From Acidobacteriota bacterium (GTDB lineage: Bacteria > Acidobacteriota > JBCCFW01): DNA of 64,000 bases. This document shows, in pieces, positions 15,189-53,472 of this stretch. The stretch lies in contig JBCCFW010000004.1 in the NCBI GenBank assembly GCA_039029535.1, forward strand, positions 41,512 through 105,511, given 5' to 3'. A program made the position numbers and the translations under genes. The notes beneath the pieces are model-generated. The model was given only the letters and a program-made list of their open reading frames with translations, was not told the origin of the DNA and did not search any database. How positions within the stretch are numbered: position 1 is the first letter of the stretch; each line of letters opens with the position of its first letter.

Positions 15189-15202
15189 GCAACCCGGACT
15201 CT

Positions 15203-15384
15203 TCATGAGTGTTCGTTGCGAGTGGCTAGCCGAGAAGGGCGCACGTAGCCGCGAAGCCCGTGGCTCAATCCGGTGGGAACCGCGGAATGAGAGCCGGAGG
15301 CGCACTTGATGGTGCGTTGAGGACCGAGGGGCGAGTACGCCCTTCGCAGGCAGCACATCTGGTCACGCAGCAGGAGACTCATGG
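15203..15384. repeat. copy B of the ~190-nt conserved element (candidate structured RNA), closing inverted repeat TCATGAGT...ACTCATGG
   Basis: Aligns to 1126-1320. The closing-helix change G..C to C..G is compensatory between copies. Lies in the intergenic space upstream of the AlgJ-like gene. Confidence 0.5.
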
Positions 15385-15399
15385 AGTGTCCGGGTTTCG

Positions 15400-22367: not shown

Positions 22368-23170
22368 GGCTTGCGCGACTTGAGGATCTTGGCGGGGACG
22401 CCCGCGACGATGGAGTAGTCCGGGACGTCCTTGGTCACCACCGCGCCCGAGGCGACGATGCAGCCCTCGCCCACGGTCACGCCGTCGACCACCGCGGCCT
22501 GCGCGCCGATCCACGTGCCGTTTCCGATGGTGATCCCGCCGCGCAGGTCATGACCCTGCTGGCTGATGGGCACGTCGAGCCGGTCGTGGTTGTACATCGT
22601 GCCACCGAGGTAGACGTACGGCCCGAGCATGACGTCGTCACCGAGGACGAGCCGGTTGCCGTGGACAGCGTAGAGACCGCAGTAGGCGCCGATGCCGATG
22701 CGGCTGCCGTAGCTCATCGTGCCGTTCTTGCAGAGCATCAGCGTGCGCTGCCCGACGGTGACGTCGTCGCCGATCTCGATGGCCAGGTCGCCGTCGTTGC
22801 GCGCGTCGACGATGCAACCGTCGGAAATGATCAGGTTGCGGCCGGCGTGGATCTTGTTGGGGCTACGCAGGGTGACGCCGGGGCCGAACAGCGCTCCCTT
22901 GCCCACGCGACCGAGGAGGCCGGGGAAGAGCTTCTTCCGGAACATGAGACCGACCGCGCCGGGCATGTTCGCGCCGAGACCGTGGATGAGCTCGTACTTG
23001 ATCATCGAGCCCAGGCCGGTCGAGCCGACGATCAGCGCCTGGTACTTGGCCAGGGCCGACTTGGACTCGTCGTGGATCTGCGCGTGAACCTTCCGACTCT
23101 TCGCCGGCGGCGCCTCGGCCGGAGCGGTCTCGGTGGGCGGGTTGGCGGGCAGCTCGGGAGGTCCAGACAT
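22364..23170 (-). CDS. left-handed beta-helix (hexapeptide-repeat) acyl/acetyltransferase
   Basis: Start at the internal ATG at 23170 (MSGPPELP...). C-terminal hexapeptide repeats ([33 protein letters not shown]). Confidence 0.65.
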
Positions 23171-24455: not shown

Positions 24456-25466
24456 TCACGACGAGGTGCTGCCGATGAGGCCTCGCGTGACCTGACCGAG
24501 GAGGCTCCGTCGCTCGACCACCAGCGAGACGGTCCCCGTCATGCCCGTGGTGAGCTCCAGGCTCGCGGGCACGGGACCGAGCGACAGGTGGGCGCGGTAG
24601 TGGCCGGTCTCGTCGTCGACGCTGCTCACGGCGACGAGCGTGGCGGAGAGCGAGCCCTGGTCGAGCAGCGAGTCGGCATCGAGCCGGAGTCGGCCCTCTC
24701 CGAGCACGCGCTGGAGGAGCCCCACCTGTCGAGGCGCGATCGTCGCCGTCGCGTGGAAGACCGCGGTCGACTGGCCCTCGGCGGAGTCCGACACCAGCGC
24801 GTGCAGCAAGGTCCCCGCCGGAGCGCGGGAGCCGAAGGACAGGTGAGCGACCCGACCGGCCGTGGCCGCCGTGACGTCGAGGTGCGCGTCACCCTCGCTC
24901 ACCGCAGCATGAGGGCCGTAGCGCTCCCGCAGCAGCGCCTCGGCGCGGGCCAGCTCGAAGCCGAGGCGTCGGCGTCGAGCCTGCTGCTCGGTGCTCTCGG
25001 CCTCCAGCCAGGCGAGCTCGGCTCGTGCGGCGTGCAGGCGAGCCAGTGCTTCGGAGAGCTCGGCTGATCGAAGCCGAAGCAGCGGCTGGCCGAGGTCGAC
25101 GCGGTCTCCGATGACGACGTGTCGTGCGTCGATCACGACGTCCTCGAAGAGCGAGTAGCGGTGCTCTCCCTCCACGCGGACGAGCTCGACGGGGAGCTCG
25201 ACCGTCCAGTCGAGGGGGATGAGGGAGCCACCGGCGACCAGCGCCACGGCGAGGAGCAGGCCCAGGCGGAGGGCGACGCGTCGGGCGCCCTGCGTGACGT
25301 CGAGGAGAGGGGAGTCCTCCTCGCGGTAGAGCTCGGTCGACTGGAGCGCGGTGAGCTCTCCCTCGGGTCGGACCTCGCCCGGAGGCGGCGGCCCCTTGCG
25401 GAGTCGGTCCGTGAGATCGACGACGGTCGATCCGGTGCCGTTCGGCGGCGAGACGGGCTCAGGCAT
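24456..25466 (-). CDS. HlyD-family membrane fusion / secretion protein
   Basis: Start at the internal ATG at 25466 (MPEPVSPP...), which overlaps the ABC-transporter TGA (ATGCCTGA). TM segment followed by a coiled-coil. The ORF-track N-terminus is an out-of-frame low-complexity artefact. Confidence 0.65.
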   Translation of the reverse strand: MPEPVSPPNGTGSTVVDLTDRLRKGPPPPGEVRPEGELTALQSTELYREEDSPLLDVTQGARRVALRLGLLLAVALVAGGSLIPLDWTVELPVELVRVEGEHRYSLFEDVVIDARHVVIGDRVDLGQPLLRLRSAELSEALARLHAARAELAWLEAESTEQQARRRRLGFELARAEALLRERYGPHAAVSEGDAHLDVTAATAGRVAHLSFGSRAPAGTLLHALVSDSAEGQSTAVFHATATIAPRQVGLLQRVLGEGRLRLDADSLLDQGSLSATLVAVSSVDDETGHYRAHLSLGPVPASLELTTGMTGTVSLVVERRSLLGQVTRGLIGSTSS

Positions 25467-27657
25467 GGGCGAGATACGCGTTGGTGAGGCTGGCATAGAT
25501 GCCGTCGTGGGAGAGGAGCTGCTCGTGAGTGCCGTCCTCGACGATGCGACCGTCGTCGAGCACGACGATGCGGTCGGCCCCGCGGACCGTGGACATGCGG
25601 TGGGCGATCGTGATGATGGTGGCCTTGGGGAAGCGCTCGTGCAGCCGGGCGGTGATCCTCTGCTCCGACTCGGTGTCCAGGACGCTGGTCGCTTCATCCA
25701 GGAGGATGATCTCCGGGTCGGTGAGGAAGAGCCTTGCGAAGGCCAGCTTCAAGCGCTGCCCGCTCGACAGGTTCCTTCCACCGTCGCTGAGGACGAAGTT
25801 GAAGCCCAGGAAGTTGCGACGCAGGAAGTCGCCGAGCTCGGCGTCCTCCATCGCCTGCTCGAGCTGCTCGAGGCTGGCGTCGGGTCTCACCTGCTGGAGG
25901 TTCGAGCGGATGGTCCCGTGGAAGATGTAGATGTCCTGCGGCAGCATCACGACCGACTGCCGGAGGAGCTGGGGGTGGTACTGCCGGAGCTCCGTGTCGC
26001 CGAGGAAGATGTTGCCCTCGTACGGATGGAGCTGGAGCAGCAGCTTGGCGAGCGTCGACTTGCCCGAGCCGTTGCGGCCCACGATGGCGAGGTGGGTGCC
26101 GGCCTCGACCTCCAGGTCGACCTCGTCGAGCACGCGGTCCGCCTCCTTCTCGGAGTAGCGGAAGGAGAGCCCCTCGATCCTCAGGTCGCCGTCCGGTCGG
26201 GTCGTGCGCTGGCTGCCGACGTCGCGAAACTCCGGCTCCTGGCCGATGAGGTCGTTCAGACGCTCGAAGGTCACGCTGAGCCCCAGCAACATCAGCCAGA
26301 GGTCGCCGAGGCTTCCCGCGCGGCTCACGACCATCATGAAGATGCTCGTGAAGGCCACGTACTGTCCGATCGTGAGCTCGCCCTGGACGGTGAGGTACGC
26401 ACCGATCCAGTACACGGAAACCTGGCTCGCCACGATCAGGCCGGACTGGAGGAGCCCGAGGCGGAGCGTGGACGTCTCCAACTCCATCGTCGAGTTCAGC
26501 GAGCGCGTGAAGAGGTGTCTCCAGTTCCAGAGACGCTGTTGCTCGATCCCGAGGATCTTGACGGTGTTGATGCCGTAGAGCGTCTCGGTGAAGCTGCCCA
26601 TCGCGTGAACGTTCGAGTGAAAGACCTTGTTTTCCAGGCTCCGAAGGCGAGGCGTGAAGACTGCCGACACGATGGTGATCACCAACACGGCCGCCAGCGC
26701 CACCGTGGCGAGGAGGGGGCTGTAGAAGAAGAGGAAGGCCGAGTAGGCGACGACCAGGAGGATGTCGAGCAGGGACTCGAGCACCGCCGGTGACAAGATG
26801 CCGGAGACCGACGACGCCTCCTGCAGGCGGTTGATGAAGTCCTCCTTCGGGTGGTCGTCGAAGTAGGACTGCCGCAGCCGCACGAAGCGATCCATGACCG
26901 CTCCGAAGAACGATCGCTCGTAGCGAGCCTTGAGCTGGATCATGAGGACGTTGCGCAGGTACTTCAGCAGGAGCTGCGTCGAGTAGACGAGGACGAGACC
27001 GAGGAGGATGGCGTGCAACAGGCGCAGGTCGTCGTCGACCAGGACTCGGTCGATGATGCCCTGGGTCATGACCGGGAGCCCGAGCCCCAGCAACTGCAGG
27101 ACGACAGTGGCGAGCAGGAGCTCGGCGAGGACCTTGCGAGCGGCGAGCAGGGGCGGCAGGTAGAACTCGCGGAGGAGACCCCACTTGCGACCACGTCGCT
27201 CCTCGATGAGCTCGAGCAGGTCGGGGTTGCGGAAGGCGTCCTCCGTCGGATCGACGGTGAACACGACGCCGTTCCAGCGAGCATGGAAACGATCCTTGCT
27301 CAGCTCATGCTCGCCGCTTCCCGGATCGATGAAGGTGATGGTGTCGTCGCCGACTCGCGTGACGACGATGAAGTGATCTCCCTGGTAGTGGGCGATGAAC
27401 GGTGCCTGCAGGTCCTGCATGCCCTCCCAGGAGGCGTGGTAACCCATGGCCTCGAAGCCGAACTTCTGAACGACTTCGGCCGCGAGGTAGAGGTTGGTGC
27501 CCTGGGCGTCGACCTGCGCGAGCTCGCGCAGCAGGTCCTGCACGTTGGTCATGCCCCAGTAGCGGAAGATCATCGCCAGGCAGGTGGTCAGACACTCGGA
27601 GCCGTCCCGCTGGAGGATCACCGGTACCGAACGTCGAGGCTTGAGCTTCGGTCTCAT
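25459..27657 (-). CDS. bacteriocin/lanthipeptide-processing ABC transporter with N-terminal C39 peptidase domain (LanT-like)
   Basis: C39 peptidase motifs QRDGSECLTTCLAM and HFIVV. Six-TM domain. Walker A GRNGSGKST, signature LSSGQRLK and Walker B ILLDEATS. ATGA overlap with the LanB gene. Confidence 0.9.
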   Translation of the reverse strand: MRPKLKPRRSVPVILQRDGSECLTTCLAMIFRYWGMTNVQDLLRELAQVDAQGTNLYLAAEVVQKFGFEAMGYHASWEGMQDLQAPFIAHYQGDHFIVVTRVGDDTITFIDPGSGEHELSKDRFHARWNGVVFTVDPTEDAFRNPDLLELIEERRGRKWGLLREFYLPPLLAARKVLAELLLATVVLQLLGLGLPVMTQGIIDRVLVDDDLRLLHAILLGLVLVYSTQLLLKYLRNVLMIQLKARYERSFFGAVMDRFVRLRQSYFDDHPKEDFINRLQEASSVSGILSPAVLESLLDILLVVAYSAFLFFYSPLLATVALAAVLVITIVSAVFTPRLRSLENKVFHSNVHAMGSFTETLYGINTVKILGIEQQRLWNWRHLFTRSLNSTMELETSTLRLGLLQSGLIVASQVSVYWIGAYLTVQGELTIGQYVAFTSIFMMVVSRAGSLGDLWLMLLGLSVTFERLNDLIGQEPEFRDVGSQRTTRPDGDLRIEGLSFRYSEKEADRVLDEVDLEVEAGTHLAIVGRNGSGKSTLAKLLLQLHPYEGNIFLGDTELRQYHPQLLRQSVVMLPQDIYIFHGTIRSNLQQVRPDASLEQLEQAMEDAELGDFLRRNFLGFNFVLSDGGRNLSSGQRLKLAFARLFLTDPEIILLDEATSVLDTESEQRITARLHERFPKATIITIAHRMSTVRGADRIVVLDDGRIVEDGTHEQLLSHDGIYASLTNAYLAHA

Positions 27658-30600
27658 GGTGCGGGTACTTCGGCGGTGACGAGTGGACGTGGTGCCTGCT
27701 CTGCGCGTGAGCGGGCGGCTCGGGAGACGTGGAGTCGATCGAGGAAGTCGTGCAAGACCAACTCGTGGGCACGCTCATGCGAGCGGACGAGACGGTTCAC
27801 GAACATGTGGAGGTAACTGACCGCCAGCTCGGTCATGGACAGGTGGCCGGCCTGCTCGTGCGCTCGCAGGCTCGGCACGATCTCGGCGAGGGCGCGCGAC
27901 CTCTCCTGGAACACGGCCATCGCATCCTTGCCCACGGTGAGCTCGGGTGCATCCAGCGCGTGCTGGACGTGCCGGCGCTCCGAGCGGTAGCGGGCCCCGA
28001 GGGGCACCCGCAACGCCCGCTCACCACCGTGCTCTCGGAGGTAACCGGCCCGCATCGAGCGGATGACGTGGTGGCGGTCCTCGATGTCAGGTAGGAGGTC
28101 TTCGAGGAGTTGCTGGATGCCGACGAGAGCGAGGCGCCAGCGCAGGTCGGCTCCCGAGCTTCCGCGGGAGAGGGCGACGAGACGCAGCACGGCGTCCGAG
28201 TCGGCATGGAAGAGCCGTTCGGACAGCTCCATCCCGTGTCGGCCACCGTAGCGTTCGAGCTCACGCTCATAGGTGTCGAGCTGCACGCGCCAGGCCAGCC
28301 CGTTCCGCAGCGGCTCGCGGAGGGCGGCGTGGAGCTGAGGGACGACGTCCGTGAGCAGGCGTCCCGGCTCACCGTGGACGCGGAGACGCACGGTGGGGTC
28401 GGGGTCCTGGAGTCGGATGAAGAACCAGCGGTCCACGACACCGTCATGCATCCAGCGTTCGACCAGAGGTCGGACGACGTCGCAGAGGAGGTCGTCGGCG
28501 CTCGCCGGCCCCGTGAAGATCCGTGCGTAGAGCCACTCGGAACCGGGAGCGAAGGTCCGCTCGCAGCCCGACAGCTCGACGCGGGGGAGCGAGGGCTCGG
28601 GTGTCGGTTCGCGACGCAGTGTCATCGGTACGAAGAGCTCGTGAACGAAGTCACCCTCCGGTCCGGTGACGGGGAGGTCGTCGAAGCCCCCCCAGTGCTC
28701 GCGAAGAACGGCTTCGTCTTCGCGCAGTAGCAAGTCGAGCAAGCTGTCGACCATCAGCTCGTTGTCGAGATCGACGAGCAGCTCGGAGTCACCACTGCCG
28801 AAGACCACGAAGCGCGGCCAGGCGTGTCGGCGACGCCACTTCGTCAACAGTCGCGGTCGCTCGTCGGGTGCGGACGTCGAGAGTCGCCGCAGGTCGTGTT
28901 GGCTCAGGCGCCAGCGAGCGAGGGAGAGAACGGTGTTCCCGAGGCACACGCGGGGCAGCGATGGCTGGGCCTCGAGCGAGCCCCAGTTCCACTGGAGCCA
29001 GCCGGCGACTCCCTGGAACTGCAGGTCGCTGAGGAAGCGATAGACACCGAGCGTGTGCGAGTCGGCAGAGTGCGCCGTGGTCAATCGAGGGACGACTTCC
29101 TTTCCGAAACGTGCCGACCGCAGGACCACGCGGTCGTCGACGACGCTCACGAGCAGGTCATCGAGCGGAATCTGATCCTGGACCGGGGCCCCGGAACGCC
29201 CGAGGAAGGGAATCTCGTGCTTCCGAAACTGCGGGCGGTGCACGACGTTGCCGTCGCGTCCCTCGGGCACGTGAACGACCTCGGCGAAGGCGGCGTCGGG
29301 GCGGAGAGCCTCCTCGCGTGCGAGGTGCTCGGCGACGTGCTCTCGCAGCGTTGCATCCCCCGTGCAGAATCGACCGAGGAGCTGGGCTCCGGACGGGCCG
29401 ACGGCCCCCTCGAACAGGAACCGGGCGTGGTCGTCCTGCCCCGAGGGAGCGAGCCGGATGCCTGCGGTGAGCGCGTCGGGGAAGGGCGGGCTCTCGGGTC
29501 GACGCAAGGCGGCGACGTCCGCGTCGCTCAGCACGAGCTCGTCCGCTCCGGAGCGTCGCCAGCGTTCGAGGATCTCGTGCAGGACGATGTCACGCGAGCC
29601 CATCTCGAGCGCCGCTCGCCCCGTGCCCGCTTCGTCATCGAGAGGCAGCCCGGCCAGTAGCGGCGAACCCGAGCTGCTCGTGGAGGAGGAGTTGCCGTAG
29701 CCGATGCCGGCCTCTTCGTCGAGCGCCTGGACCAGGGGGATCTCTCGCTCTCCGTAGCGCTCGACGAACGCGTCCCGGAAGCGGCCTAGCTCGCGATCGT
29801 GATCGAAGTCGGAGGCACCACGCAGGAACTCGAGGACGTCGGCAAGCTGGCTCGTGACGTTTTCGGAGAGCGTGGCCTCAGGTGCCGACTTGATGAGCTC
29901 GAGGTGGACGAGCGCTCGGCCGGGCGTGGGCACCGAGAGCGTTTCCAGCGTGGGCGTTAGACGGGACAGGAGCAGGCCCGGGGACGGCGTGCCGTCCCTG
30001 CCGAGCTCCCCCAGCGCGTGGTTGAGGTCGACGAGGGCCTCGTGCCAGCGTCCGCCGCCCGCGTGTTCACCGACCTGAGCGGTCAGCTCATCGAGTGAGC
30101 TAGGACCGGTCAAGCAAGGACGGAGGTCCGGGACGAGGAGCTGCTCCCTCGCCAGCTCCTCGACGTACTCTTCCGCTTCCTCCAGGTCGACGTCGGCCTC
30201 CCGTGCGAGCGAGCGCGCGAGTCGTTCTCGGGTCTCACCACCGCGCGCGTGCTCGAGCGCGGCGTCGAGGAACGGGGACGGCTCGAAACGGACGAGATGA
30301 TGGGCGCGGTTGCGGTCGCTGCCCTGGGCCTGAATGACACCGAGCTTGCCCGCGACGCGATGGAGGGTGGAGCTCGGCCGCAGCTTCGTCGTGGACACGA
30401 GCTCTGGAGCAGTGGCGAGCGCCTCGGCGATCTCCTGCACGACTGCTGCGTCGAGACGGACGTGGAGACGATGACGCGACGTCTCCGCAAGACGCAGGTT
30501 CGTTTCATCGCCGACGCGGACGACGGCGTGACCCGCGAAGAGTCCGAAGGGTGTCGCCCGCGAGGTCATGCGGGTCAGGTAGCGGACCAGCGAGCGCTCC

Positions 30601-30857
30601 ACGGCGCGACCCTGACGACTGTCCGGAGCGCGACGCCAACCTGGCAGCTCCGCGTGCAGGCTCGGCGAGGCAAGTGCGATCGCCGTGTCCACGTCTTCGC
30701 GATCGATGAACGCCGCGAGTCGATCTCGGAGCTCGCTTCGGTCGGATGAAGGAGCGTCGCCGCACCACTCCCTGAGCTCCCGGAGCGCATGTGCTGGCGT
30801 CCTCAGCACGGCGAAGCCCGAGCTTTCGAGGACGGGAGAGCGTTCCGAGGTCTTCAT
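27654..30857 (-). CDS. class I lanthipeptide dehydratase (LanB-like, glutamylation plus elimination domains)
   Basis: 1067 aa, the typical LanB size, with the N-terminal motif TPFGLFAG. ATGA overlap with the LanC gene. Confidence 0.8.
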   Translation of the reverse strand: MKTSERSPVLESSGFAVLRTPAHALRELREWCGDAPSSDRSELRDRLAAFIDREDVDTAIALASPSLHAELPGWRRAPDSRQGRAVERSLVRYLTRMTSRATPFGLFAGHAVVRVGDETNLRLAETSRHRLHVRLDAAVVQEIAEALATAPELVSTTKLRPSSTLHRVAGKLGVIQAQGSDRNRAHHLVRFEPSPFLDAALEHARGGETRERLARSLAREADVDLEEAEEYVEELAREQLLVPDLRPCLTGPSSLDELTAQVGEHAGGGRWHEALVDLNHALGELGRDGTPSPGLLLSRLTPTLETLSVPTPGRALVHLELIKSAPEATLSENVTSQLADVLEFLRGASDFDHDRELGRFRDAFVERYGEREIPLVQALDEEAGIGYGNSSSTSSSGSPLLAGLPLDDEAGTGRAALEMGSRDIVLHEILERWRRSGADELVLSDADVAALRRPESPPFPDALTAGIRLAPSGQDDHARFLFEGAVGPSGAQLLGRFCTGDATLREHVAEHLAREEALRPDAAFAEVVHVPEGRDGNVVHRPQFRKHEIPFLGRSGAPVQDQIPLDDLLVSVVDDRVVLRSARFGKEVVPRLTTAHSADSHTLGVYRFLSDLQFQGVAGWLQWNWGSLEAQPSLPRVCLGNTVLSLARWRLSQHDLRRLSTSAPDERPRLLTKWRRRHAWPRFVVFGSGDSELLVDLDNELMVDSLLDLLLREDEAVLREHWGGFDDLPVTGPEGDFVHELFVPMTLRREPTPEPSLPRVELSGCERTFAPGSEWLYARIFTGPASADDLLCDVVRPLVERWMHDGVVDRWFFIRLQDPDPTVRLRVHGEPGRLLTDVVPQLHAALREPLRNGLAWRVQLDTYERELERYGGRHGMELSERLFHADSDAVLRLVALSRGSSGADLRWRLALVGIQQLLEDLLPDIEDRHHVIRSMRAGYLREHGGERALRVPLGARYRSERRHVQHALDAPELTVGKDAMAVFQERSRALAEIVPSLRAHEQAGHLSMTELAVSYLHMFVNRLVRSHERAHELVLHDFLDRLHVSRAARSRAEQAPRPLVTAEVPAP

Positions 30858-32173
30858 GACGTCGCCTCAGCGCACGGAGAAGACAGGAGCAGGATCGCGT
30901 CCCAGGCTGGTGCGATCGAAGTCGTCGCCGCGAGAAGGGCGAGCGCGATGCCGGAGGCTCCGTTGAGGAAGCCGCTGTCGTCGTGCCATGCGAGTCGGCC
31001 GTCATCGCCTCGGTCCCAGGCGCGGTAGCCAGCAACGCCGGTTCCCGGGTGCTGCATGTCGAGTGCGAGCTCGAACCAGCGTCGTGCCGCGTCGGCCATC
31101 ACGTCGTCGCCCGTTGCATGCCAGAGGCGGTTGAACACGTGGCCGATGCCGGAAGCACCGTGGCACAGGGCGGCGTCCTCCACGCCGCTGCTCTCGCGGG
31201 TCCGCGCTGCCGCGCGTCGAGCGATCACACGCGCCTCGAGCTCCCAGTCCTGCCGGCCCGTGGCGCGCGCTGCCTGGAGCAGGACCACGCTGATGCCGAG
31301 CTCGCCGTGGCACCAGGCGAGACGAGCTGGGAGCTCATCCCTGCCGTCTCCCATGTCGTAGGGGAACACGGCGTCGGCATCGTCTTCGAGCTTGCGAGCG
31401 AGCAACCAGCTCACCGCTCCGTCGAGCAGGACGAGGGCACGGTCGCGCTCGATGTCGGCACGCACCAGCGCGCTCAGCAGGGCGGCGATTCCGGCGACGC
31501 CGTGGGCGACTCCGACACAATAGGTACCGCCGTTCGCGACGGCGTGTTCTGATGGCACCAGGTCGTTGCTCGTGAACCAGGCGAGGCCGTCGCCATGCTC
31601 CACGGCGAGCGTCTCGAGGTGGCCGAGCATCGAGCGCAGGCACGAGAACGCGCTCTCTCGAGGAAGTCGCGACAGCGCGTGGGCGCCGAAGCCGACGAGG
31701 CCTTCCACGAGGTCGTGATGATGGGGCCATGTCTCTCGCGAGAGATGTTCCGCCAGCGCGAGGTCGACGACCTCGCCGGGATCCGGAATGTCATCGAGAC
31801 CCGAGACGCGGTGAGCGAGCTGGCTCATGACGTGATCGCGGGCCCAGGCAACACCGACGAAGCCACAGTAGAGGGAGGCGGACATGGGGGTCTCGGCGAG
31901 CGCCACCACCGAACGCTCGAGTCTCGTCGCGACGGCATCTCCTGCCACCAGGCCGGGTCGAGCTGCCGAGAGATACGCGAGGGTGAGCGCGCGACCTGCA
32001 TTGCCGTCGGCCAGTGATTCGTCATCGGGACGCAATGTCGGCTCGGACAGGAGGGCGTCTGCGAGGTCACCGAGGGCGACGTTGGCTCGGACGGCGAGGT
32101 CGCCCTCCAGGACGGGAGTCCACGTGGCTGGAGTCGGGGTCGTTCGCGTTCGGCTAGCGCTGAGTGAGGTCAT
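30854..32173 (-). CDS. lanthipeptide cyclase (LanC-like)
   Basis: LanC zinc-site motifs VAHGVAGIAALL, AWCHGELG and ALCHGASGIGHV. Start assigned to the internal ATG at 32173, which is preceded by AGGAGA at 7 nt. The ATG at 32209 abuts the hairpin. Confidence 0.85.
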   Translation of the reverse strand: MTSLSASRTRTTPTPATWTPVLEGDLAVRANVALGDLADALLSEPTLRPDDESLADGNAGRALTLAYLSAARPGLVAGDAVATRLERSVVALAETPMSASLYCGFVGVAWARDHVMSQLAHRVSGLDDIPDPGEVVDLALAEHLSRETWPHHHDLVEGLVGFGAHALSRLPRESAFSCLRSMLGHLETLAVEHGDGLAWFTSNDLVPSEHAVANGGTYCVGVAHGVAGIAALLSALVRADIERDRALVLLDGAVSWLLARKLEDDADAVFPYDMGDGRDELPARLAWCHGELGISVVLLQAARATGRQDWELEARVIARRAAARTRESSGVEDAALCHGASGIGHVFNRLWHATGDDVMADAARRWFELALDMQHPGTGVAGYRAWDRGDDGRLAWHDDSGFLNGASGIALALLAATTSIAPAWDAILLLSSPCAEATS

Positions 32174-32212
32174 GCCCGGTCTCCTGGTTGGTCGGGGTGA
32201 GTGGTGCATGGA

Positions 32213-32243
32213 GCGTCCGGACCGGCATCGTCGGTCCGGACGC
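32213..32243 (-). terminator. perfect 12-bp stem-loop (GCGTCCGGACCG-N7-CGGTCCGGACGC) between precursor A and lanC; probable attenuator or processing hairpin
   Basis: Perfect inverted repeat read directly. No U-tract follows, so partial termination or transcript stabilisation is more likely than full termination. Confidence 0.5.
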
Positions 32244-32259
32244 GTCCACCGCGTTCGGA

Positions 32260-32460
32260 CTAGAGCCCGAAGTCCTCGCCGGTCTCGGCCTGGCGTGCGC
32301 TACCGCATCCCCGCTTCTTGCACTTCGTGCAGCCACAGGTGCTCTTGCGCTTGCTCTTCGGGACCGCCACGCCGCCCTGCACGTCCTGCAGCTCGTCGGC
32401 GTCGAGCTGGCGGAGGGTGTCCTTGTTCAGCACGAGCTTCTTCACGTTGTTCTTGGTCAT
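32260..32460 (-). CDS. RiPP precursor peptide A (double-glycine leader; polycationic Cys/Ser/Thr-rich core)
   Basis: 66 aa: MTKNNVKKLVLNKDTLRQLDADELQDVQGG / VAVPKSKRKSTCGCTKCKKRGCGSARQAETGEDFGL. ATG at 32460 preceded by AGAGGAAG. Leader has hydrophobic residues at -4, -7, -12, -15 and ends in GG. Confidence 0.85.
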   Translation of the reverse strand: MTKNNVKKLVLNKDTLRQLDADELQDVQGGVAVPKSKRKSTCGCTKCKKRGCGSARQAETGEDFGL

Positions 32461-32550
32461 GGTCAGGCTTCCTCTCATTGATTGATTCGGTCTTCGGTAG
32501 GCACGGCCGACTGAGTGCGGGTGGTGGTGCGCGTGAGCGGCCGTCGTCTC

Positions 32551-32579
32551 CCTGTACAGCTCCTCGTGCGGGACCTGAC
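32551..32579 (-). promoter_or_regulatory. conserved cis motif GTCAG-N15-CTGTACAGG, copy upstream of precursor A (about 90 nt from the ATG)
   Basis: One of four copies with identical 15-nt spacing (also 32949-32977, 36365-36393, 38731-38759). Confidence 0.5.
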
Positions 32580-32640
32580 ACGCCACCAAGCTAGTCCCGC
32601 TCGTCTCCTCGTCCTGGGAGGAGTGAGCGGAGACGCAACG

Positions 32641-32665
32641 CTCGGACCGCGGCCGCCGGTCCGAG
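32641..32665 (-). terminator. stem-loop CTCGGACCG-N7-CGGTCCGAG immediately downstream of precursor B
   Basis: Perfect 9-bp stem. Shares the CGGACCG...CGGTCCG core with the hairpin after precursor A. Confidence 0.45.
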
Positions 32666-32684
32666 CGCCACCGAGCTCACTCGA

Positions 32685-32864
32685 TCAGGCGCCGCCGCGG
32701 CAGAACCGCGACTTGCCCTTCTGGCAGCTGCAGGTCGACTTCCGCTTGGTCCCCTTGCGCTTCGGGACCGCCTCGCCTCCCTGCACGTCCTGCAGGTCGT
32801 CGGCGTCGAGCTGGCGGAGGGTGTCCTTGTTCAGGCTGAGCTTCTTCACGTCGTTGTTGCTCAT
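32685..32864 (-). CDS. RiPP precursor peptide B (paralog of A)
   Basis: 59 aa: MSNNDVKKLSLNKDTLRQLDADDLQDVQGG / EAVPKRKGTKRKSTCSCQKGKSRFCRGGA. ATG at 32864 preceded by GAAGGAA. Leader DNA is ~90% identical to precursor A while the cores diverge. Confidence 0.85.
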   Translation of the reverse strand: MSNNDVKKLSLNKDTLRQLDADDLQDVQGGEAVPKRKGTKRKSTCSCQKGKSRFCRGGA

Positions 32865-32948
32865 GATCAGTTCCTTCTGAGTGGATTGGCATTGCTGTGT
32901 TGGGGACGACGACCCACGACGGGTGCGCGGACCATCGGCCGTCACCCC

Positions 32949-32977
32949 CCTGTACAGTCAGCCGTTCGGAACCTGAC
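32949..32977 (-). promoter_or_regulatory. conserved cis motif GTCAG-N15-CTGTACAGG, copy upstream of precursor B (about 84 nt from the ATG)
   Basis: See 32551-32579. Confidence 0.5.
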
Positions 32978-32986
32978 GCAGAGTTG

Positions 32987-34354
32987 TCAGGGCGTGACCG
33001 TCGCTCGGTGCTGTCCGCTTCGTGTCGCTGGCTGATCGAGGAAGCAACGAAGGAAGTACGGAGCACCATCGCGCAGCTCCCAGCGCGACGTTGGCACGCA
33101 GCGCTTCAGCTCTCGCCAGCGGCCGATGGCGAGATGCAGCGGTGCCAGCCACTCGGCGAGACGGAGGGTCTCGGCCAACTCCTCCGGTGTCGCGAACCCT
33201 CGCCAAGGCCCCAGGTAGGCTGCAAGCACTCGCGCTCGCAACTCCGGCGGCTCGCCATCGAGCAGGCCGGTGAAGGGGGTGAGGAAAGGATGGCTGAGCG
33301 TCGCGTCGGTCCAGTCGAGGATCGCGGGCTGACCATCGCGCTCGCAGAGATTGCCCAGATGAAAGTCGCCGTGCTCGAGCCCGCTGGGTCCGAGGAGTGC
33401 CAGGCGCCTACAAGCGTCGACGAGGTCTCCGCGGAGAGACGCGAACACGTCGAGCTCGGTTGCGGTGAGCCCGAATCGACCGAAGGTGACGGTCTCGGTT
33501 TCGTGCAGCAGTGAGTCGACTTGCTCTGGGAGTAGGTCGATGGCGGCTTCCGGCAGCCTGAGCGTGCGGAGCTCGTGTTCGTTCTCCAGGAGCGCGCGTT
33601 GCATCGTCGCGAGCGTGGCGGCCGCCTGGCAGGCGGCGTCTGTTCGAGAGAGTGTCGAGACGAGCGGATCGCCGAGCGAGCGTGTCAAGAACCAACCCCG
33701 GGATCGGTCATGGGCGATCAGCTCGGGAACGCGCCCGGGGCAGCGTGCGGCGAGGCAGCGGAGGAGAGCGGCCTCGCGTGTCGAGCTTGGCCCGACCATC
33801 TTGAGGTACGTGGTGCCGGCGTCGGTCTCCAACATGACGACGGCACCACCGGAGTCGGACTTGAGCGACTGAGCCTCGAGCACCGGCCGTTCCAGAGCGA
33901 CCTCGGCCCAGTCGATGGCCTCGTCCAGCCAACCTCGTCGCTGCCACGGCGCGAGGGTGACCGCTTCTCGCTCCGCCTCTTGGAGGCATTGACTCACGAC
34001 TGCGACGTGAGTTTCGTCGGCGAGATCCGCTCGAGCCAGCTCCTCCTCGGCCCACCATCGACTCTCGGCGGTGGCTCCGGTGCGGTGCCCGACGACGTGG
34101 TACACGTGGAACCGTTCGCCGGTCTGCAAGAACTCCGTTCCGGCTGCCACGACCTCCCGTGAGAACTGAGAGCGGACGCCGTGCCGTACCAGAAGCCAGT
34201 CCGTGACGTCCTGGACCTCGGGCTCGTCGTCGTTGTCGAACTCCACGGCAGGAAGGGTCCAGCCCTCACCGCTTCGGACGAGCAAGACCCTTGGCAGCGT
34301 GTCGTGGAGCAGGAGTGAGCAGAGTCGGGTGCGCCTTGCTCGCGGGCTACTCAC
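32987..34354 (-). CDS. aminoglycoside-phosphotransferase (APH)-family kinase with N-terminal ~150-aa extension
   Basis: Brenner catalytic motif HGDFHLGNL and downstream ILDWTDA (Mg-binding D). GTG start 13 nt after the JmjC stop. Confidence 0.7.
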   Translation of the reverse strand: MSSPRARRTRLCSLLLHDTLPRVLLVRSGEGWTLPAVEFDNDDEPEVQDVTDWLLVRHGVRSQFSREVVAAGTEFLQTGERFHVYHVVGHRTGATAESRWWAEEELARADLADETHVAVVSQCLQEAEREAVTLAPWQRRGWLDEAIDWAEVALERPVLEAQSLKSDSGGAVVMLETDAGTTYLKMVGPSSTREAALLRCLAARCPGRVPELIAHDRSRGWFLTRSLGDPLVSTLSRTDAACQAAATLATMQRALLENEHELRTLRLPEAAIDLLPEQVDSLLHETETVTFGRFGLTATELDVFASLRGDLVDACRRLALLGPSGLEHGDFHLGNLCERDGQPAILDWTDATLSHPFLTPFTGLLDGEPPELRARVLAAYLGPWRGFATPEELAETLRLAEWLAPLHLAIGRWRELKRCVPTSRWELRDGAPYFLRCFLDQPATRSGQHRATVTP

Positions 34355-34367
34355 GACGCGATCCCGT

Positions 34368-35558
34368 TCAGTGAACCTGCTGGCCGGCGTCTCGCTGGAG
34401 CGCGCCTTCCTTCAGCAGGTAGGCGAGGGTGAGCTCGACGAGATCCGGCGCGACGCTCGAGCACGCCGCGCGGGCGTCCTGAGCGGTGAAGGCGCTCGGG
34501 CGGTCGACGAGCCACTGCACCAACGGGAGCAGCTCGGTGTCGACCTCGATCTCCGCCCCCGCGTTCGGACGCCTGACACGGAGCTTCCAGTTGCTTCCTC
34601 GAACGCCCTCGTCCCGCAGCGACTTCGACGCGTCTGCCGGCCAGTGGAAGCGCTCGCCCGAGACGCTGGCGCTCTGCAGCAGTGACTCGGCGTCGAGCCC
34701 ATCGACCACCCGAGCGAGATCGGGAAGCAAGGTGGCGAGCTCGCGCGCGAGCCGTGCCCGGGAGCGCTCGTCTCCGGCGAGTCCGAGGGGGTAGGCCCGC
34801 CACTCCGCCAGGTTTCCGAGGCGGCGGTCGAGCTCCTCGAGCACGACGTTCTTCCAGGTCGGAGGTTGCACGGTGAAGTTGAGCGCGAAGGACTCACCGG
34901 CGACACCGGTCTCGTGCCAGACCCCGCGAGGGAGGAACATGACGCTTCCCTCCCTCAGCTCGACGGTCTCGGAGTTGCGTGGCATCCGACGAGGGAGCGG
35001 CCGACGTGCGTGCGGTGGGCCGTGGTCGTCCGTGGCCTTCGCGTGGTAGCTCTCGGTCGGGTTCACGACGTGGTGATTCGGCGCGAGACGCCAGGTCTTG
35101 GTTCCCCTGAGCTGCACGTTGAAGTTCACGTCGAAGTCGTAGTGCATCGGCACGCCCAGGCTGCGCTTCGAGGCAAATGCCTCGATGGAGACGTGGTCTG
35201 GATGGACTCCGAGGTCGGCGGCGAGCTCGGCCCGGGGGGAGCGCAGCTCGGGCACCGCGTTCTCGACGTTCGTGATGTAGAGCGTGTCGCCGCGCTCGTA
35301 GAGGTCGCGAGCGGTCGCGGCAGGGACCTCGGTCTGGAATCCCTTGTCGCCGAAGATGGTCACGGGCTTGCGGAGTCTTCCGAGCAGGACTCCGAGGTCG
35401 CGCATGGCGGGTAGGGTCGCGAGCAACCCGAGGCGGTCGACGGCGCCGTGGCCCACGTGACTGACTTCGGGCCAGTGCTGCCGGAGGAAGTCACGCTTGG
35501 GCATGCCGAAGAGGGTCCGCAGTCCGAGCTTCTTGTCAGTCGAGCCGTCTCGTCTCAT
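34368..35558 (-). CDS. JmjC/cupin-4 family Fe(II)/2-oxoglutarate-dependent hydroxylase
   Basis: HxD...H facial triad context (VPMHYDFDVNFNVQLRGTKTWRL ... FLPRGVWHET). Start at ATG 35558 with a GGAGAAG SD. Confidence 0.65.
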   Translation of the reverse strand: MRRDGSTDKKLGLRTLFGMPKRDFLRQHWPEVSHVGHGAVDRLGLLATLPAMRDLGVLLGRLRKPVTIFGDKGFQTEVPAATARDLYERGDTLYITNVENAVPELRSPRAELAADLGVHPDHVSIEAFASKRSLGVPMHYDFDVNFNVQLRGTKTWRLAPNHHVVNPTESYHAKATDDHGPPHARRPLPRRMPRNSETVELREGSVMFLPRGVWHETGVAGESFALNFTVQPPTWKNVVLEELDRRLGNLAEWRAYPLGLAGDERSRARLARELATLLPDLARVVDGLDAESLLQSASVSGERFHWPADASKSLRDEGVRGSNWKLRVRRPNAGAEIEVDTELLPLVQWLVDRPSAFTAQDARAACSSVAPDLVELTLAYLLKEGALQRDAGQQVH

Positions 35559-35589
35559 GTCTCTTCTCCGTCGTGTGGTTCGTGGCGCT

Positions 35590-36321
35590 TCAGGACGCGA
35601 TGTCGGATTGGTCGAGGTGGATGACGCCGGCACGCGAGGCTGCGTGGCGACCGAGGTCCCGGCGGAGCTCGATGGGGTCGAAGGCGGAGCTCTGGCGACC
35701 GTCTCGCATGCCGCGAGGCCGCCGGTCCCACCAGTTGACGAGGAAGGTCACGCGGATGGAGCCGGCGACGTCACCGGGGTAGATCGCGTGATAGAGATGA
35801 CCCGGGAACACGGTGTAGTGATTCGAGCGGGGGAGCACGGCGACGCCGCGTGTCGGGCTGGGCGGCGAGAGCGTCTTGCCAGAGGGGTCACAGCCTTGAT
35901 CGACGATGAGCGTCGGGCCGCCGTTGCGACCCAGGTAGAACACGGACGCGACGAGCGGGTGCACCATCCGTCCCGTGTCTTCGAAGAGCTGTTCGTCCTT
36001 GTCGAAGTGAAAGCTCTTTCCGTCGGTCGTGTCTCGAACCTGGAACCACCACTCCGCTCCGATGCAACTCGGTCCCGGCCGCGCCAGCCGTCGAAGCCGT
36101 CGAATGGCGTGCTCGGGCAGGGTCGACGGTGCGCGGTCGAGCGGGTACCAACCACCCGCCCGTGAGAGCTCGTTCCGCGCGCCCCGGCGGAGGGTGCGAC
36201 GGACGTGCTCGGCGAAGCGGCGATACAGGGTCGACGGCAGCGCCGAGCGGAAGCAGCGCGTGCTCGTCACGTCGGCTCGGTGACGGGAGCGGGGCTTTTC
36301 GGCGAGGGCTCGTGACGACAT
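35590..36321 (-). CDS. putative Fe(II)/2-oxoglutarate oxygenase (prolyl-4-hydroxylase-like fold)
   Basis: HFDKDE (HxD), ~55 aa later HYTVFPGHLYH, then IRVTF (RxS/T-like). ATG 36321 with a GGAG SD. Confidence 0.45.
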   Translation of the reverse strand: MSSRALAEKPRSRHRADVTSTRCFRSALPSTLYRRFAEHVRRTLRRGARNELSRAGGWYPLDRAPSTLPEHAIRRLRRLARPGPSCIGAEWWFQVRDTTDGKSFHFDKDEQLFEDTGRMVHPLVASVFYLGRNGGPTLIVDQGCDPSGKTLSPPSPTRGVAVLPRSNHYTVFPGHLYHAIYPGDVAGSIRVTFLVNWWDRRPRGMRDGRQSSAFDPIELRRDLGRHAASRAGVIHLDQSDIAS

Positions 36322-36364: not shown

Positions 36365-36393
36365 CCTGTACAGCGCAGCGGTCCAGCTCTGAC
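36365..36393 (-). promoter_or_regulatory. conserved cis motif GTCAG-N15-CTGTACAGG, copy upstream of the oxygenase/JmjC/kinase unit (about 43 nt from the ATG)
   Basis: See 32551-32579. Confidence 0.5.
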
Positions 36394-36402
36394 ATCGGGC
36401 GG

Positions 36403-38673
36403 TCAAGCCGACGGAGCGATGGGCATGAGCAACGCTTCGTCCCAGGTGGGCTCGTCGAGGCTGACGGCCGAGAGCAACCCGAGAACGACGCCCGAGCGTC
36501 CATCGAGCAGGCCGTTGCCGCTCAGACGTGGAGGCGTGTCGTCGGTGGGCAGGGCGAGGGTCACGGCGTGGTCGAGCCACGTTCGCGCTGCCTGCTCGAG
36601 TGAGGGGTGACCGAGGGCTCGATGCAGGCGATTGAGGGCCTGGGCGACGCCGATGGCTCCGTGGCAGGCAGAGGCCGTGTCGATGCCGGCCGACTCCGCC
36701 GAACGAGTGGCGGCGTGGAGCGCGATGTCGAGGGCGAGAATCTCCCAGCTCGACTCTCCGATCGAGCGAGCAGCCGAGAGCAGTGCGAGCGCGATCCCGA
36801 GGTCTCCCGAACACCACGATGGGCGCGACGGGGTCGGTGTCGCCCAGCCGACGAATGACGGGAATCGAGACGCCGAGCCCGGAGGAAGCTCCCGGTCGAG
36901 GAGCCACTCGATGCTCTCGAACAACAGCTCCCGTGCGGAGCCCGGTGGCTCGTCGAGCGCGCAGGCCCGGGAGAGCAGTGCGACGACGCCCGCCATCCCG
37001 TGCAGCACGCCGAGGTCGCGACGTCCCCCGCGGAAGACATGAGGTGCCTCGGGTGCGTGGCGCATGAGCGCGAGAGACCAGTCCCGCGAGCCGTTCACGA
37101 GCGAGGCCTGGTCGAGCCGCTCGATCACGTCCTCAATGAGGCTTCGTGCCGACGCACGTGACCGGCGCTCGAGGGCATGAACGCCGATCCCGACGAGCCC
37201 GCCGCGGAGATCCAACCGCCCGGTCCAAGCCTGTGAGGCGAGCGTGTCCGCGAGGGTGGCGTCGACGTCCTCCAGGCCGTCGGCTTCGTGCAGGCTCGCT
37301 TCCGAGAACCGCGAGGCGACCCACGCGACACCGGTGAAGCCGTCGTGGAGACCGATGCCCAGCGGACGCTCGGCGACTGCTTCGAGCGCGACATCGAGCC
37401 ATCGCGACGCCAGGTCGTCGTGAGCCGAGTCGATGCCGGCGCGCGCCAGCTCGAGATGGCAGAGCGCACGGCCGGCCGCACCGGTCGCCAGGGAAGCGTC
37501 GACGGACCCGGCGTCGACCGAGACGTCGGGCTCGGAGACCAGCTCGTCGGACAAGCGGGCGATCGCGTCCCAGGTCGTCTCTGCTTCCTGGCCGACGAGG
37601 AGTGGTTGCCACCCTGAGACGGGAGAGGGGCTCATCGCAGCCGGGGATGGCACGACGTCGAGCCGGGCTGCGCCGTCGCTTGGGCCTCTCGCCGTCGGTT
37701 CGAGCTCGAGCACGTGGAAGGCCCGGCAGGCGATCGGCTCGGCGCCCAGCCGCTCTGCAAGACGGAGGGTGTGTCGGTAACCGGAGAGGTGGCAGTTGGT
37801 GTCGAACCACGTGCGGGTCGCGCCTTGCTCCGCCGCACGCTCGGCGACCGCCGAAAGGAGGAGCGCGTGAATTCCCGTCCTCCTCATGTCCGGCAGGATC
37901 TCCTCGTACTCGGCGTGAACGTGCGGCCCCTTCCGGAACGCGAGCAGCACGCCGACGGCGCGGTCGTTCACGCGTGCGACGACCGAGAGGTCGCGGAGCG
38001 CGCGGTAGTCCTCGCTCAGGAGCCAGGTGCGGAAGTCGTCGCCCTTCCGGCCCAGCACGACGTGAAACAGCGACTCGAGCGAGGCGTCGGGGTCGTCCGG
38101 GAGTGGGCCGAGGCTCAGGCCGTCCGGGAGCGTTCGCCGACGGGCGATGCGCTCGCACAGCGTCGCGACGTGGGCACGGAAGTCTCCGAGGTCCACGTCG
38201 AAGCTGGCTTGCTCGAGGTCGCGGGAGAAGCCCTGCTCACGGAGGAAGGCGACGGCTCCGGGCTCCGTCGGCTGCGTCACTTCGAGAGACGTGACTCCGG
38301 CGGCCCGACCGTCCTCGCGCAGCCGCTCGAGGAGGATGCTGCCGACACCGCGCCGACGGGCGCCCTCGGCGACACGCAGCAACAGGGGCACGCGCTCGCC
38401 GACGTCGCCCCAGTAGCGAACACCGCGCGCCGCGGCGCCGACCGGTCGGCCCCCTGCTTCCGCGATGAGCAGGCCCGGCGCCCACGGGCCCAGCGGTCCG
38501 AGGTGCTCCGCGAGTTGGGCCCAGTCGGGTCGTTCCTCGAAGAGCTCCGGCAGGAGCTCTCGGAGAACGTCGGAATCGGAGCCGGTGGCTTGCCGGACTC
38601 GAATCCCCGGTTCGGCCGGTGGGATCGAGTCCGACCACGTGGTCGCTGCCTGCGTCTCGGACCTGCCCTGCAT
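36403..38673 (-). CDS. fusion protein: tandem GNAT acetyltransferase-like domains plus C-terminal LanC-like cyclase domain
   Basis: N-terminal ~330 aa with GNAT-like segments (RRRGVGSILLERL). C-terminal LanC motifs GVLHGMAGVVALL, SWCSGDLG and SACHGAIG. ATG 38673 preceded by GGAGGAAC. Confidence 0.75.
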   Translation of the reverse strand: MQGRSETQAATTWSDSIPPAEPGIRVRQATGSDSDVLRELLPELFEERPDWAQLAEHLGPLGPWAPGLLIAEAGGRPVGAAARGVRYWGDVGERVPLLLRVAEGARRRGVGSILLERLREDGRAAGVTSLEVTQPTEPGAVAFLREQGFSRDLEQASFDVDLGDFRAHVATLCERIARRRTLPDGLSLGPLPDDPDASLESLFHVVLGRKGDDFRTWLLSEDYRALRDLSVVARVNDRAVGVLLAFRKGPHVHAEYEEILPDMRRTGIHALLLSAVAERAAEQGATRTWFDTNCHLSGYRHTLRLAERLGAEPIACRAFHVLELEPTARGPSDGAARLDVVPSPAAMSPSPVSGWQPLLVGQEAETTWDAIARLSDELVSEPDVSVDAGSVDASLATGAAGRALCHLELARAGIDSAHDDLASRWLDVALEAVAERPLGIGLHDGFTGVAWVASRFSEASLHEADGLEDVDATLADTLASQAWTGRLDLRGGLVGIGVHALERRSRASARSLIEDVIERLDQASLVNGSRDWSLALMRHAPEAPHVFRGGRRDLGVLHGMAGVVALLSRACALDEPPGSARELLFESIEWLLDRELPPGSASRFPSFVGWATPTPSRPSWCSGDLGIALALLSAARSIGESSWEILALDIALHAATRSAESAGIDTASACHGAIGVAQALNRLHRALGHPSLEQAARTWLDHAVTLALPTDDTPPRLSGNGLLDGRSGVVLGLLSAVSLDEPTWDEALLMPIAPSA

Positions 38674-39213: not shown

Positions 39214-39708
39214 CTAGTTCATCCACTTGTCGAGCCAACCGGTGTCGATGCTGACCGAACCGGAGGCCGAGCCGCCGACGGTGCCGGGCTTCGTGCCGCT
39301 GACGCCGGTGTTGTTGCGGTTGGCCGCCTGGCCGGGGGCCGAGCCGCCGCCGCCCATGCCGCTGCCGACACCCATGGTGTTGCCGGCCGAGCGACGACGA
39401 ACCGCGTCGTAGACGGCGGAGGCGTCGATGGTGCCGCCACGGATGTTGCCGACCGTGCCGCCCACGCCGCCGGCGACCTGCTCGAGCATGTCGTCGGAGA
39501 GCTCTTCCGCGCTGGCCATGCGGGCCTTCAGGGCCTCACGGAGACCGGACGCGTCCTCGGCCGAGAAGGCGAAACCGTGCTTGCCAGCGACCTCGGCGAC
39601 GGAGGTGTCGACGTCCGCCGCCTCCTCGAGGGTGCGGTTCAGCTCATCCCGCAGGCCTTCGTCCTGACAGGCTTTGTTGAAGAACTCCAGGGCCTTTTCC
39701 GTGCTCAT
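39214..39708 (-). CDS. Nif11-type leader RiPP precursor peptide with Cys-free Gly/Ser/Thr-rich core
   Basis: 164 aa. Leader MSTEKALEFFNKACQDEGLRDELNRTLEEAADVDTSVAEVAGKHGFAFSAEDASGLREALKARMASAEELSDDMLEQVAGG matches the Nif11 leader family (ends LSDDMLEQVAGG). Core GTVGNIRGGTIDASAVYDAVRRRSAGNTMGVGSGMGGGGSAPGQAANRNNTGVSGTKPGTVGGSASGSVSIDTGWLDKWMN. SD GGAGGAAG. Confidence 0.8.
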   Translation of the reverse strand: MSTEKALEFFNKACQDEGLRDELNRTLEEAADVDTSVAEVAGKHGFAFSAEDASGLREALKARMASAEELSDDMLEQVAGGVGGTVGNIRGGTIDASAVYDAVRRRSAGNTMGVGSGMGGGGSAPGQAANRNNTGVSGTKPGTVGGSASGSVSIDTGWLDKWMN

Positions 39709-53412: not shown

Positions 53413-53472
53413 TCAAGTCGATGCAGTTTCGAATGGAAGACGACACCTGATGGTCGATGGAGGGAGAGCGTG

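Follow-up and report, generated by a model that had tools for sequence, protein, structure and literature searches.

The window analyzed here, a 64,000-nucleotide (nt) stretch of contig JBCCFW010000004.1 from an Acidobacteriota bacterium, contains two small genes on the minus strand, preA and preB, which are very probably a tandem pair of duplicated LanA genes in a class I lanthipeptide cluster with the order lanA2-lanA1-lanC-lanB-lanT-adaptor in a Gram-negative member of the Acidobacteriota. The genes, the leader family, the order of the cluster, the cleavage consensus, the composition of the cores, and a shared upstream motif were all observed in the sequence. The basic system is known and already annotated. 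What is new here lies in the extreme Lys-rich cores, in a putative second cyclase fused to a tandem GNAT, and in an oxygenase/kinase operon that the motif links to the precursors.

Precursor genes, leader family, and cluster

A pair of paralogous precursors with double-glycine leaders had been predicted from the letters of this DNA, and both open reading frames (ORFs) were found in place, with the following layout:

32260-32460, minus strand: preA, class I lanthipeptide precursor of 66 amino acids (aa), supported by the ORF, the NF038153 match, and the NCBI name
32371-32460, minus strand: preA leader, codons 1-30
32263-32370, minus strand: preA core, 36 aa
32685-32864, minus strand: preB, paralogous class I lanthipeptide precursor of 59 aa, supported by the same kinds of evidence
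32775-32864, minus strand: preB leader
32688-32774, minus strand: preB core, 29 aa

The preA product consists of the leader MTKNNVKKLVLNKDTLRQLDADELQDVQGG followed by the core VAVPKSKRKSTCGCTKCKKRGCGSARQAETGEDFGL, and that of preB of the leader MSNNDVKKLSLNKDTLRQLDADDLQDVQGG followed by the core EAVPKRKGTKRKSTCSCQKGKSRFCRGGA. The whole proteins are 73% identical. As the original prediction had described, the leaders are nearly identical (25 of 30 residues; 82 of 90 nucleotides, or 91.1%, where about 90% had been given), whereas the cores diverge, with 74% DNA identity in their alignable part, a 9-nt indel, and unrelated C-terminal tails.

The GC content at third codon positions (GC3) is 0.94 in preA and 0.98 in preB, compared with 0.78-0.91 in the neighbouring enzyme genes, and Shine-Dalgarno-like purine runs, GAGAGGAAG and AGAAGGAA, lie 6-8 nt 5' of the two ATGs. 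From these two features both ORFs look translated. Alternative in-frame GTG/TTG starts are present and would extend the ORFs to 109 and 86 aa, but they are unlikely because the similarity of the paralogs ends above the ATG, except for a non-coding motif, and because the leader of the relatives begins at the same Met. Neither tblastn nor a scan with a hidden Markov model of the leader revealed a third precursor copy in the 64-kb window. ORFs antisense to both precursors (32327-32880, plus strand) are likewise high in GC3 (0.82-0.89), most likely as a mirror-frame artefact of high-GC DNA and not as genes.

Both leaders score 30.3 bits (E 3.4e-7) against NCBIfam NF038153 (lant_leader_L1a; cutoff 22) and carry the LxLxKx5L motif in the form L9-V-L11-N-K13-DTLRQ-L19. 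The predicted double-glycine consensus can be read from the sequence as V(-4), L(-7), L(-12), and L(-15) with GG at -2/-1, and the leader conserved across the family also contains four Lys. Judged by these signatures, preA and preB belong to a known kind, the class I lanthipeptide precursors with an LxLxKx5L/GG leader. The database search proposed for the precursors returned this known leader family as well as the NCBI name, "MAG: class I lanthipeptide [Acidobacteriota bacterium]" (MAG, metagenome-assembled genome), under which the NCBI protein database already lists both peptides, on a contig of 112 kb.

An exhaustive HMMER search of 1.84 billion representative proteins with a two-sequence profile yielded 24 matches; nearly all are short and combine this leader with a core rich in Cys/Ser/Thr. 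From a word-indexed profile search came 1324 matches, and among the best 120 of these many were called 'class I lanthipeptide' or carried PF28317. The PF28317 model in the local Pfam copy did not match preA or preB; relatives carry PF28317 in precomputed tables.

The reading of the leaders as those of a RiPP (a peptide that is made on the ribosome and modified after translation) is supported by the NF038153 score above cutoff. The leader type itself is not new, since the combination of LxLxKx5L and a GG leader with a C39 protease has already been described for class I precursors (Walker 2020, PMC7268733). For the viridisins it was demonstrated that a double-glycine leader directs LanBC modification, and the pinensins, Ped15.1/15.2, and the thalassomonasins are further characterized members of this leader group (PMC9680876). 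All four share the LxLxKx5L leader family and the GG site with preA and preB. One family member named 'class I lanthipeptide', P0132 (GCA_036275055.1, DASUEN010000069.1, 10001-10183; locus L031), has neither LanB nor LanC within 10 kb and is neighboured by toxin-antitoxin and integrase genes; therefore, orphan precursors of this leader family exist.

The genes downstream of the precursors encode the expected machinery:

30854-32209, minus strand: LanC cyclase (PF05147, E 3.7e-33; GxAHG, WCHG, and CHG motifs)
27654-30857, minus strand: full-length LanB dehydratase with glutamylation and elimination domains (PF04738, E 4e-141; PF14028, E 3e-64)
25459-27657, minus strand: C39-peptidase ABC exporter, LanT/PCAT (PF03412, E 9e-29)
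24456-25466, minus strand: putative HlyD-like membrane-fusion adaptor (TIGR01843, E 1e-5, far under cutoff)

The precursors, lanC, lanB, the C39-ABC gene, and the adaptor gene lie on the same strand, and the enzyme genes overlap successively by 4 nt, as the lanB start does with the lanC stop. The true lanC start is likely the ATG at 32173, which stands behind AGGAG. Candidate catalytic residues of the C39 domain, found by inspection, are Cys (QRDGSEC), His (GDHF), and Asp (IDPGSG). The transporter had been placed four genes downstream of the precursors, which is correct when counted from preB and not from preA, from which it is the third. No LanP-like protease was found among the scanned cluster genes. 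An outer-membrane beta-barrel gene adjoins the cluster and fits a diderm host. With its stand-alone LanB and LanC, its C39-ABC exporter, and more than one precursor, the cluster resembles the Gram-negative L1a class I group, which has several precursors per cluster.

Composition of the cores and the nearest relatives

The preA core contains 4 Cys, 6 Ser/Thr, 6 Lys, and 3 Arg and ends in an acidic tail, QAETGEDFGL, and the preB core contains 3 Cys, 5 Ser/Thr, 6 Lys, and 4 Arg. The net charge of +8 to +9 claimed for both applies to preB (+9); the whole preA core carries +6 (9 Lys/Arg, 3 Asp/Glu), and +9 is obtained for its residues 1-26 alone. Across 131 family members the core charge averages -0.37 (standard deviation 2.1; about -0.4 for the L1a family), with Lys and Arg (K/R) making up 6% of core residues, compared with +6 and +9 and a K/R share of 25-34% in the two cores. 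The highest charges in this set are those of preB (+9), the relative P0011 (+9), and preA (+6), followed by +4. The cores are therefore atypical for their family, as had been stated; poly-Lys/Arg cores as such have a precedent in the Pep5, epilancin, and paenibacillin groups (PMC10652874).

Lys accounts for only 1.7% of residues over the 36 ORFs of the 69%-GC window, with a K/(K+R) of 0.16, and for 17-21% of the two cores, with a K/(K+R) of 0.60-0.67, an enrichment of more than 10-fold over the window proteome. Against the protein composition of the window, the binomial P is 5e-4 for 10 K/R in 29 residues and 8e-6 for 6 Lys in 29. Considering the Lys share, the K/(K+R) ratio, and these probabilities together, Lys itself, and not only positive charge, appears to be selected in the cores. 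Because only about 15% of their residues (14-15%) are hydrophobic, the cores are not classic amphipathic membrane peptides, and the proposed resemblance to membrane-active cationic peptides is weak. The scarcity of hydrophobic residues and the strong preference for Lys over Arg also set them apart from the L1a family. PDB searches with cores alone gave no significant match.

The two cores share the scaffold KRKSTCxCxKxKxRxC. LanC rings normally run from a dehydrated residue to a Cys that lies 2-7 residues downstream. A Ser/Thr directly before Cys (STC) had been read as suitable for small rings; by itself such adjacency is no indicator, and what is conserved in preA, preB, and P0011 is the spacing [S/T]-x-R-K-x-x-C (i to i+6). 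The P0011 core, HAPPHAQTGRKNKCKRSSGKGKGCKK, has a charge of +9 with 7 Lys and 2 Cys and occurs in soil-metagenome contigs (loci L001-L004) in the order precursor-LanC-LanB-(199 aa)-C39 ABC. The stand-alone LanC of the window is 42% identical to the LanC of the P0011 locus, and its LanB is 41% identical to the L001 LanB. Aligned to preA and preB, P0011 has [S/T]xRKxxC, a later Lys, and the last Cys in common with them, a hint that all three may form the same ring scaffold, in which an i to i+6 ring would enclose R-K. On the strength of three sequences, preA, preB, and P0011 may constitute a small polycationic subgroup.

The P0011 locus thus agrees with this cluster in gene order, in its polycationic core, and in the [S/T]xRKxxC ... 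K ... C positions, and differs in having a single precursor and lacking the GNAT-LanC, APH, and orf243 genes described below. Its JmjC gene is only distantly similar, lying 7 kb off across divergent genes. JmjC was considered as a conserved partner of cationic cores and rejected, as the L001 JmjC shows 30% identity over 119 residues only and stands behind divergent genes.

Cationic relatives are few. The word-indexed search with preB alone returned only the two window peptides, and a profile built from the three cationic peptides found no others. The exhaustive HMMER search yielded one more cationic core, that of P0011, plus the mildly basic P0009 (+3). The LanC-related loci that were scanned (2 genome and 24 metagenome) held about 25 precursors with core charges from -4 to +2. 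Elsewhere among the related loci examined, neither the GNAT-LanC fusion nor the motif-linked orf243/JmjC/APH operon turned up.

The best functional analogy for preA and preB would be the cationic, non-lipid-II lantibiotics. Pep5-type peptides have FNLD-type leaders removed by a LanP-type protease, are rich in hydrophobic residues, and disrupt membranes. preA and preB differ from the Pep5/epilancin group in their GG leader with a C39 protease and in their cores of about 15% hydrophobic residues. No Pep5- or epilancin-like sequence was found among the HMMER matches, and the leader of preA and preB is of the GG/LxLxKx5L type. Common to both sides are the LanB/LanC systems and the high net positive charge. 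The Pep5, epilancin 15X/K7, and paenibacillin groups are highly cationic class I lantibiotics of Firmicutes that do not act on lipid II, and their Lys/Arg residues are essential for activity and thought to bind a negatively charged partner (PMC10652874). In addition, the Pep5-type group features a five-residue ring at its centre, position 2 of which is cationic, with cationic residues on both sides (PMC10652874). The possible i to i+4 rings of the window peptides (S10-C14 in preA, S13-C17 in preB), a pattern that is predicted only, have Thr at position 2 and cationic flanks.

Shared motif, hairpins, and upstream genes

An exact bipartite motif, GTCAG-N15-CTGTACAGG, which contains the palindrome CTGTACAG, occurs three times in the window, always on the minus strand:

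32551-32579, minus strand: motif copy 1, 90 nt upstream of the preA ATG
32949-32977, minus strand: motif copy 2, 84 nt upstream of the preB ATG
36365-36393, minus strand: motif copy 3, 43 nt upstream of orf243

No further copy was found in the window at up to two mismatches, a tolerance at which 0.3 would be expected, and none of 100 shuffled controls reached three matches. The motif is absent from loci L001-L030 and from the region upstream of the GNAT-LanC fusion gene. As the conserved upstream element folds no better than shuffles, it was taken as a DNA-level site, probably a cluster-specific promoter or operator. The position of the third copy suggests joint regulation of the orf243-JmjC-APH operon and the precursors, and the motif is the best evidence for this link. 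A scan of 32100-33100 for sigma-70 promoter and intrinsic-terminator consensus returned nothing.

Each precursor gene is followed by predicted RNA structure:

32213-32243, minus strand: GC-rich hairpin between preA and lanC (12-bp stem, 7-nt loop; minimum free energy (MFE) -36.6 kcal/mol, z -2.5)
32598-32669, minus strand: two consecutive GC-rich hairpins directly 3' of the preB stop (MFE -57.4 kcal/mol, z -3.4)

None of 200 shuffles folds as well as the hairpins behind preB. The hairpin at 32213-32243 has no T-tract and is a putative attenuator or mRNA stabilizer; a hairpin after the precursor gene is the usual layout that keeps precursor mRNA above enzyme mRNA. No Rfam family or tRNA gene was found in the window.

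Four genes upstream of preB may be involved in tailoring:

32987-34354, minus strand: APH-family phosphotransferase, adjoining preB upstream (PF01636, E 4.8e-13; HGDFHLGN and ILDWTD motifs)
34368-35633, minus strand: JmjC/cupin 2-oxoglutarate oxygenase, YxbC-like (PF08007, PF13621; HYD...WHET motifs)
35590-36321, minus strand: orf243, the first gene behind the third motif copy
36403-38673, minus strand: tandem GNAT and LanC fusion of 756 aa (His, WCxG, and CHG zinc-ligand motifs kept)

In the PDB, the JmjC protein matched Bacillus subtilis YxbC (1vrb/7zcc, E 4.7e-26) and, more weakly, JMJD5 and MINA. No match to orf243 was found in Pfam, NCBIfam, or the PDB; by eye it contains FHFDKD...GHLYHAI...RVTF, an HxD...H...R pattern recalling 2-oxoglutarate-Fe(II) oxygenases. 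The APH, JmjC, and orf243 products are candidate tailoring enzymes for the precursors, the JmjC protein as a candidate side-chain hydroxylase; hydroxylysine kinase is an APH-family enzyme. A class V-like dehydration by the APH protein with a HopA1-like lyase was considered for these genes and rejected, as orf243 has no matches and by eye resembles an oxygenase and not a lyase.

The LanC part of the fusion shares 37% identity with the stand-alone LanC (E 8e-55) and 35-41% with the LanCs of related loci, and it groups with them in one class I cyclase clade. The fusion is a candidate second cyclase and acyl/acetyl-transferase. Known tandem-GNAT enzymes attach acyl groups to the side chains of Lys or Orn in lanthipeptides (PMC13060382), which makes Lys acylation a reasonable conjecture here. 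The selidamides and nostolysamides likewise combine a tandem GNAT with Lys-bearing cores in a lanthipeptide cluster (PMC13060382), but those are LanM (class II) systems whose GNAT is free-standing, whereas in this cluster a class I-type LanC carries the GNAT pair as a fusion.

Further upstream, an ORF of 164 aa (39214-39708, minus strand) has a Nif11-type leader (PF07862, 24.3 bits, cutoff 23.8; TIGR03798, 30.4 bits, cutoff 32.3) that ends in LEQVAGG and an 83-aa core rich in Gly/Ser/Thr/Asn without Cys. This makes it the third precursor with a GG leader in the neighbourhood, and it may use the same C39 exporter.

At 51206-53412 and 53470-55655 (plus strand), 19 kb from the precursors, lie two tandem pairs, each of an ABC ATPase (237 aa) and a protein of about 500 aa without a Pfam match; between the large partners, identity is 28% across the C-terminal halves, and the pairs might act as an exporter of the immunity type. 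The LPG_synthase_TM protein at 21306-22514 (minus strand) was considered as a source of MprF-type immunity and rejected, since it scores 14 bits where the cutoff for bifunctional MprF is 600. The protein is of a generic flippase-like kind, lies next to hexapeptide/sugar acetyltransferase genes, and does not speak for cationic-peptide resistance. The region 12433-21068 (minus strand) encodes two AlgX-like SGNH acetyltransferase-domain proteins, then a pair of large carbohydrate esterases of the SASA type that bear thrombospondin type 3 repeats, and is a polysaccharide O-acetylation/deacetylation block unrelated to the precursors.

Proposed biosynthesis, alternatives, and significance

The modification and export steps proposed here follow characterized class I biochemistry. 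The LxLxKx5L leader would dock the peptide on LanB, which would glutamylate core Ser/Thr with Glu-tRNA and eliminate glutamate to give dehydroalanine or dehydrobutyrine. LanC, possibly along with the GNAT-fused LanC, would then add the three to four core Cys to form thioether rings, the best ring candidate running from the conserved [S/T] to the Cys six residues on in [S/T]-x-R-K-x-x-C. The C39 domain of the exporter would cleave after GG during export, and the orf243/JmjC/APH genes would probably add further modifications. The outcome would be a pair of hydrophilic polycations of about +9, constrained by rings. The likeliest of their possible roles would be antagonism through electrostatic binding of the anionic envelope components of competitors, as has been proposed for the cationic non-lipid-II lantibiotics; this is a guess that falls short of probable. 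On the mode of action, electrostatic targeting of anionic envelope polymers is tentatively favoured over classical pore formation.

Several points weigh against this picture of a lanthipeptide cluster with antagonistic products. The evidence is the sequence of a single MAG contig. No recognizable immunity gene (LanI/LanFEG) was found in the operon, and the HlyD-like assignment of the adaptor is weak (HlyD_3 18.6 bits, under cutoff; a transmembrane segment seen). In NisB substrate studies by Rink and co-workers, Ser/Thr with charged flanks were reportedly dehydrated poorly, so the extent of core modification is uncertain. In addition, pore formation like that of Pep5 and the epilancins is doubtful because the cores have few hydrophobic residues.

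An extension of the lanthipeptide reading holds that the cores serve mainly as scaffolds for Lys/Arg chemistry, being hydroxylated, phosphorylated, or acylated by the orf243 and JmjC oxygenases, the APH-like kinase, and/or the GNAT-LanC fusion; the product would then be heavily tailored and possibly lipidated. It is consistent with the occurrence of the motif solely upstream of preA, preB, and orf243 in the window, with the tight packing of orf243, JmjC, and APH just upstream of preB, and with a K/(K+R) that rises from 0.16 in the window proteome to 0.60-0.67 in the cores, a mark of Lys selection. The enzymes fit as well, in that the JmjC protein weakly matches Arg/Lys/His hydroxylases, the APH family includes hydroxylysine kinase, and the LanC of the fusion shares its class I clade with the stand-alone LanC; tandem GNATs acylate lanthipeptide Lys or Orn (PMC13060382). 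Yet such genes occur in no other related locus examined, that of P0011 included (with its distant JmjC only), and what these upstream enzymes truly act on may be the Nif11-type precursor at 39214-39708. The oxygenase call for orf243 is a motif seen by eye, its AlphaFold2 single-sequence model (pLDDT 32) being unusable, and the solved structure nearest to the JmjC protein carries the label of a putative asparaginyl hydroxylase. Considering both sides, such tailoring is somewhat unlikely. The bolder proposal that preA, preB, and P0011 form an unrecognized, hydrophilic, hyper-cationic, Lys-selected subgroup whose side chains are tailored here by orf243/JmjC/APH and the GNAT-LanC is unlikely and ranks lower still.

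The remaining explanations concern the peptides themselves. Two precursors with one leader type and one enzyme set might form a synergistic two-peptide lanthipeptide pair in place of congeners of one activity, but both cores are built on the same scaffold, known two-peptide systems pair dissimilar peptides, and the related P0011 locus has one precursor, which makes such a pair quite improbable. Still more improbable is export of the peptides with essentially no modification, as class II-type bacteriocins or as polycations whose Cys form disulfides or bind metal, with the adjacent LanBC serving other substrates or being inactive on preA and preB. A GG leader and a C39 exporter would be enough for secretion, and charged flanks may, from general knowledge, hinder dehydration, but the class II bacteriocin models stayed below cutoff (Bacteriocin_IIc, a weak match of 13.3 bits, far under its 27.1; cerein-type 14.2 bits, cutoff 21.5). 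Furthermore, the leader family stands beside LanB/LanC in most of the longer loci examined, P0132 being an orphan, the window holds no other L1a-type precursor for LanBC, and the Ser/Thr-to-Cys spacing fits ring formation. Finally, the recency of the tandem duplication (leaders 91% identical in DNA) and the MAG source leave slight room for one or both copies being silent or decaying duplicates without a product. Each copy, however, keeps its ORF, a Shine-Dalgarno-like site, a GC3 of 0.94 or 0.98, its own motif, and its own downstream hairpin, and this explanation is the least probable of all.

The finding concerns one cluster in one metagenome-assembled genome and would be no surprise to a specialist unless the Lys/Arg tailoring is real. 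The shared motif provides a testable link to an oxygenase/kinase operon and possibly to new Lys/Arg chemistry on a RiPP. If the tailoring is real, the product of the proposed tailored subgroup would be a ribosomal ring-constrained polycation, possibly a lipopeptide functionally like polymyxin, from the Acidobacteriota. Lanthipeptides of Gram-negative and uncultured soil phyla are many, and very few have a known function. preA and preB lie at the far edge of the sequence space of their family, with about one positive charge per three residues, almost no hydrophobic residues, and strong Lys selection in a genome that hardly uses Lys. If LanB and LanC process such cores, the substrate tolerance of class I enzymes would be wider than is known so far, and the cluster would yield compact, protease-resistant polycations that are candidate antimicrobials or outer-membrane permeabilizers.

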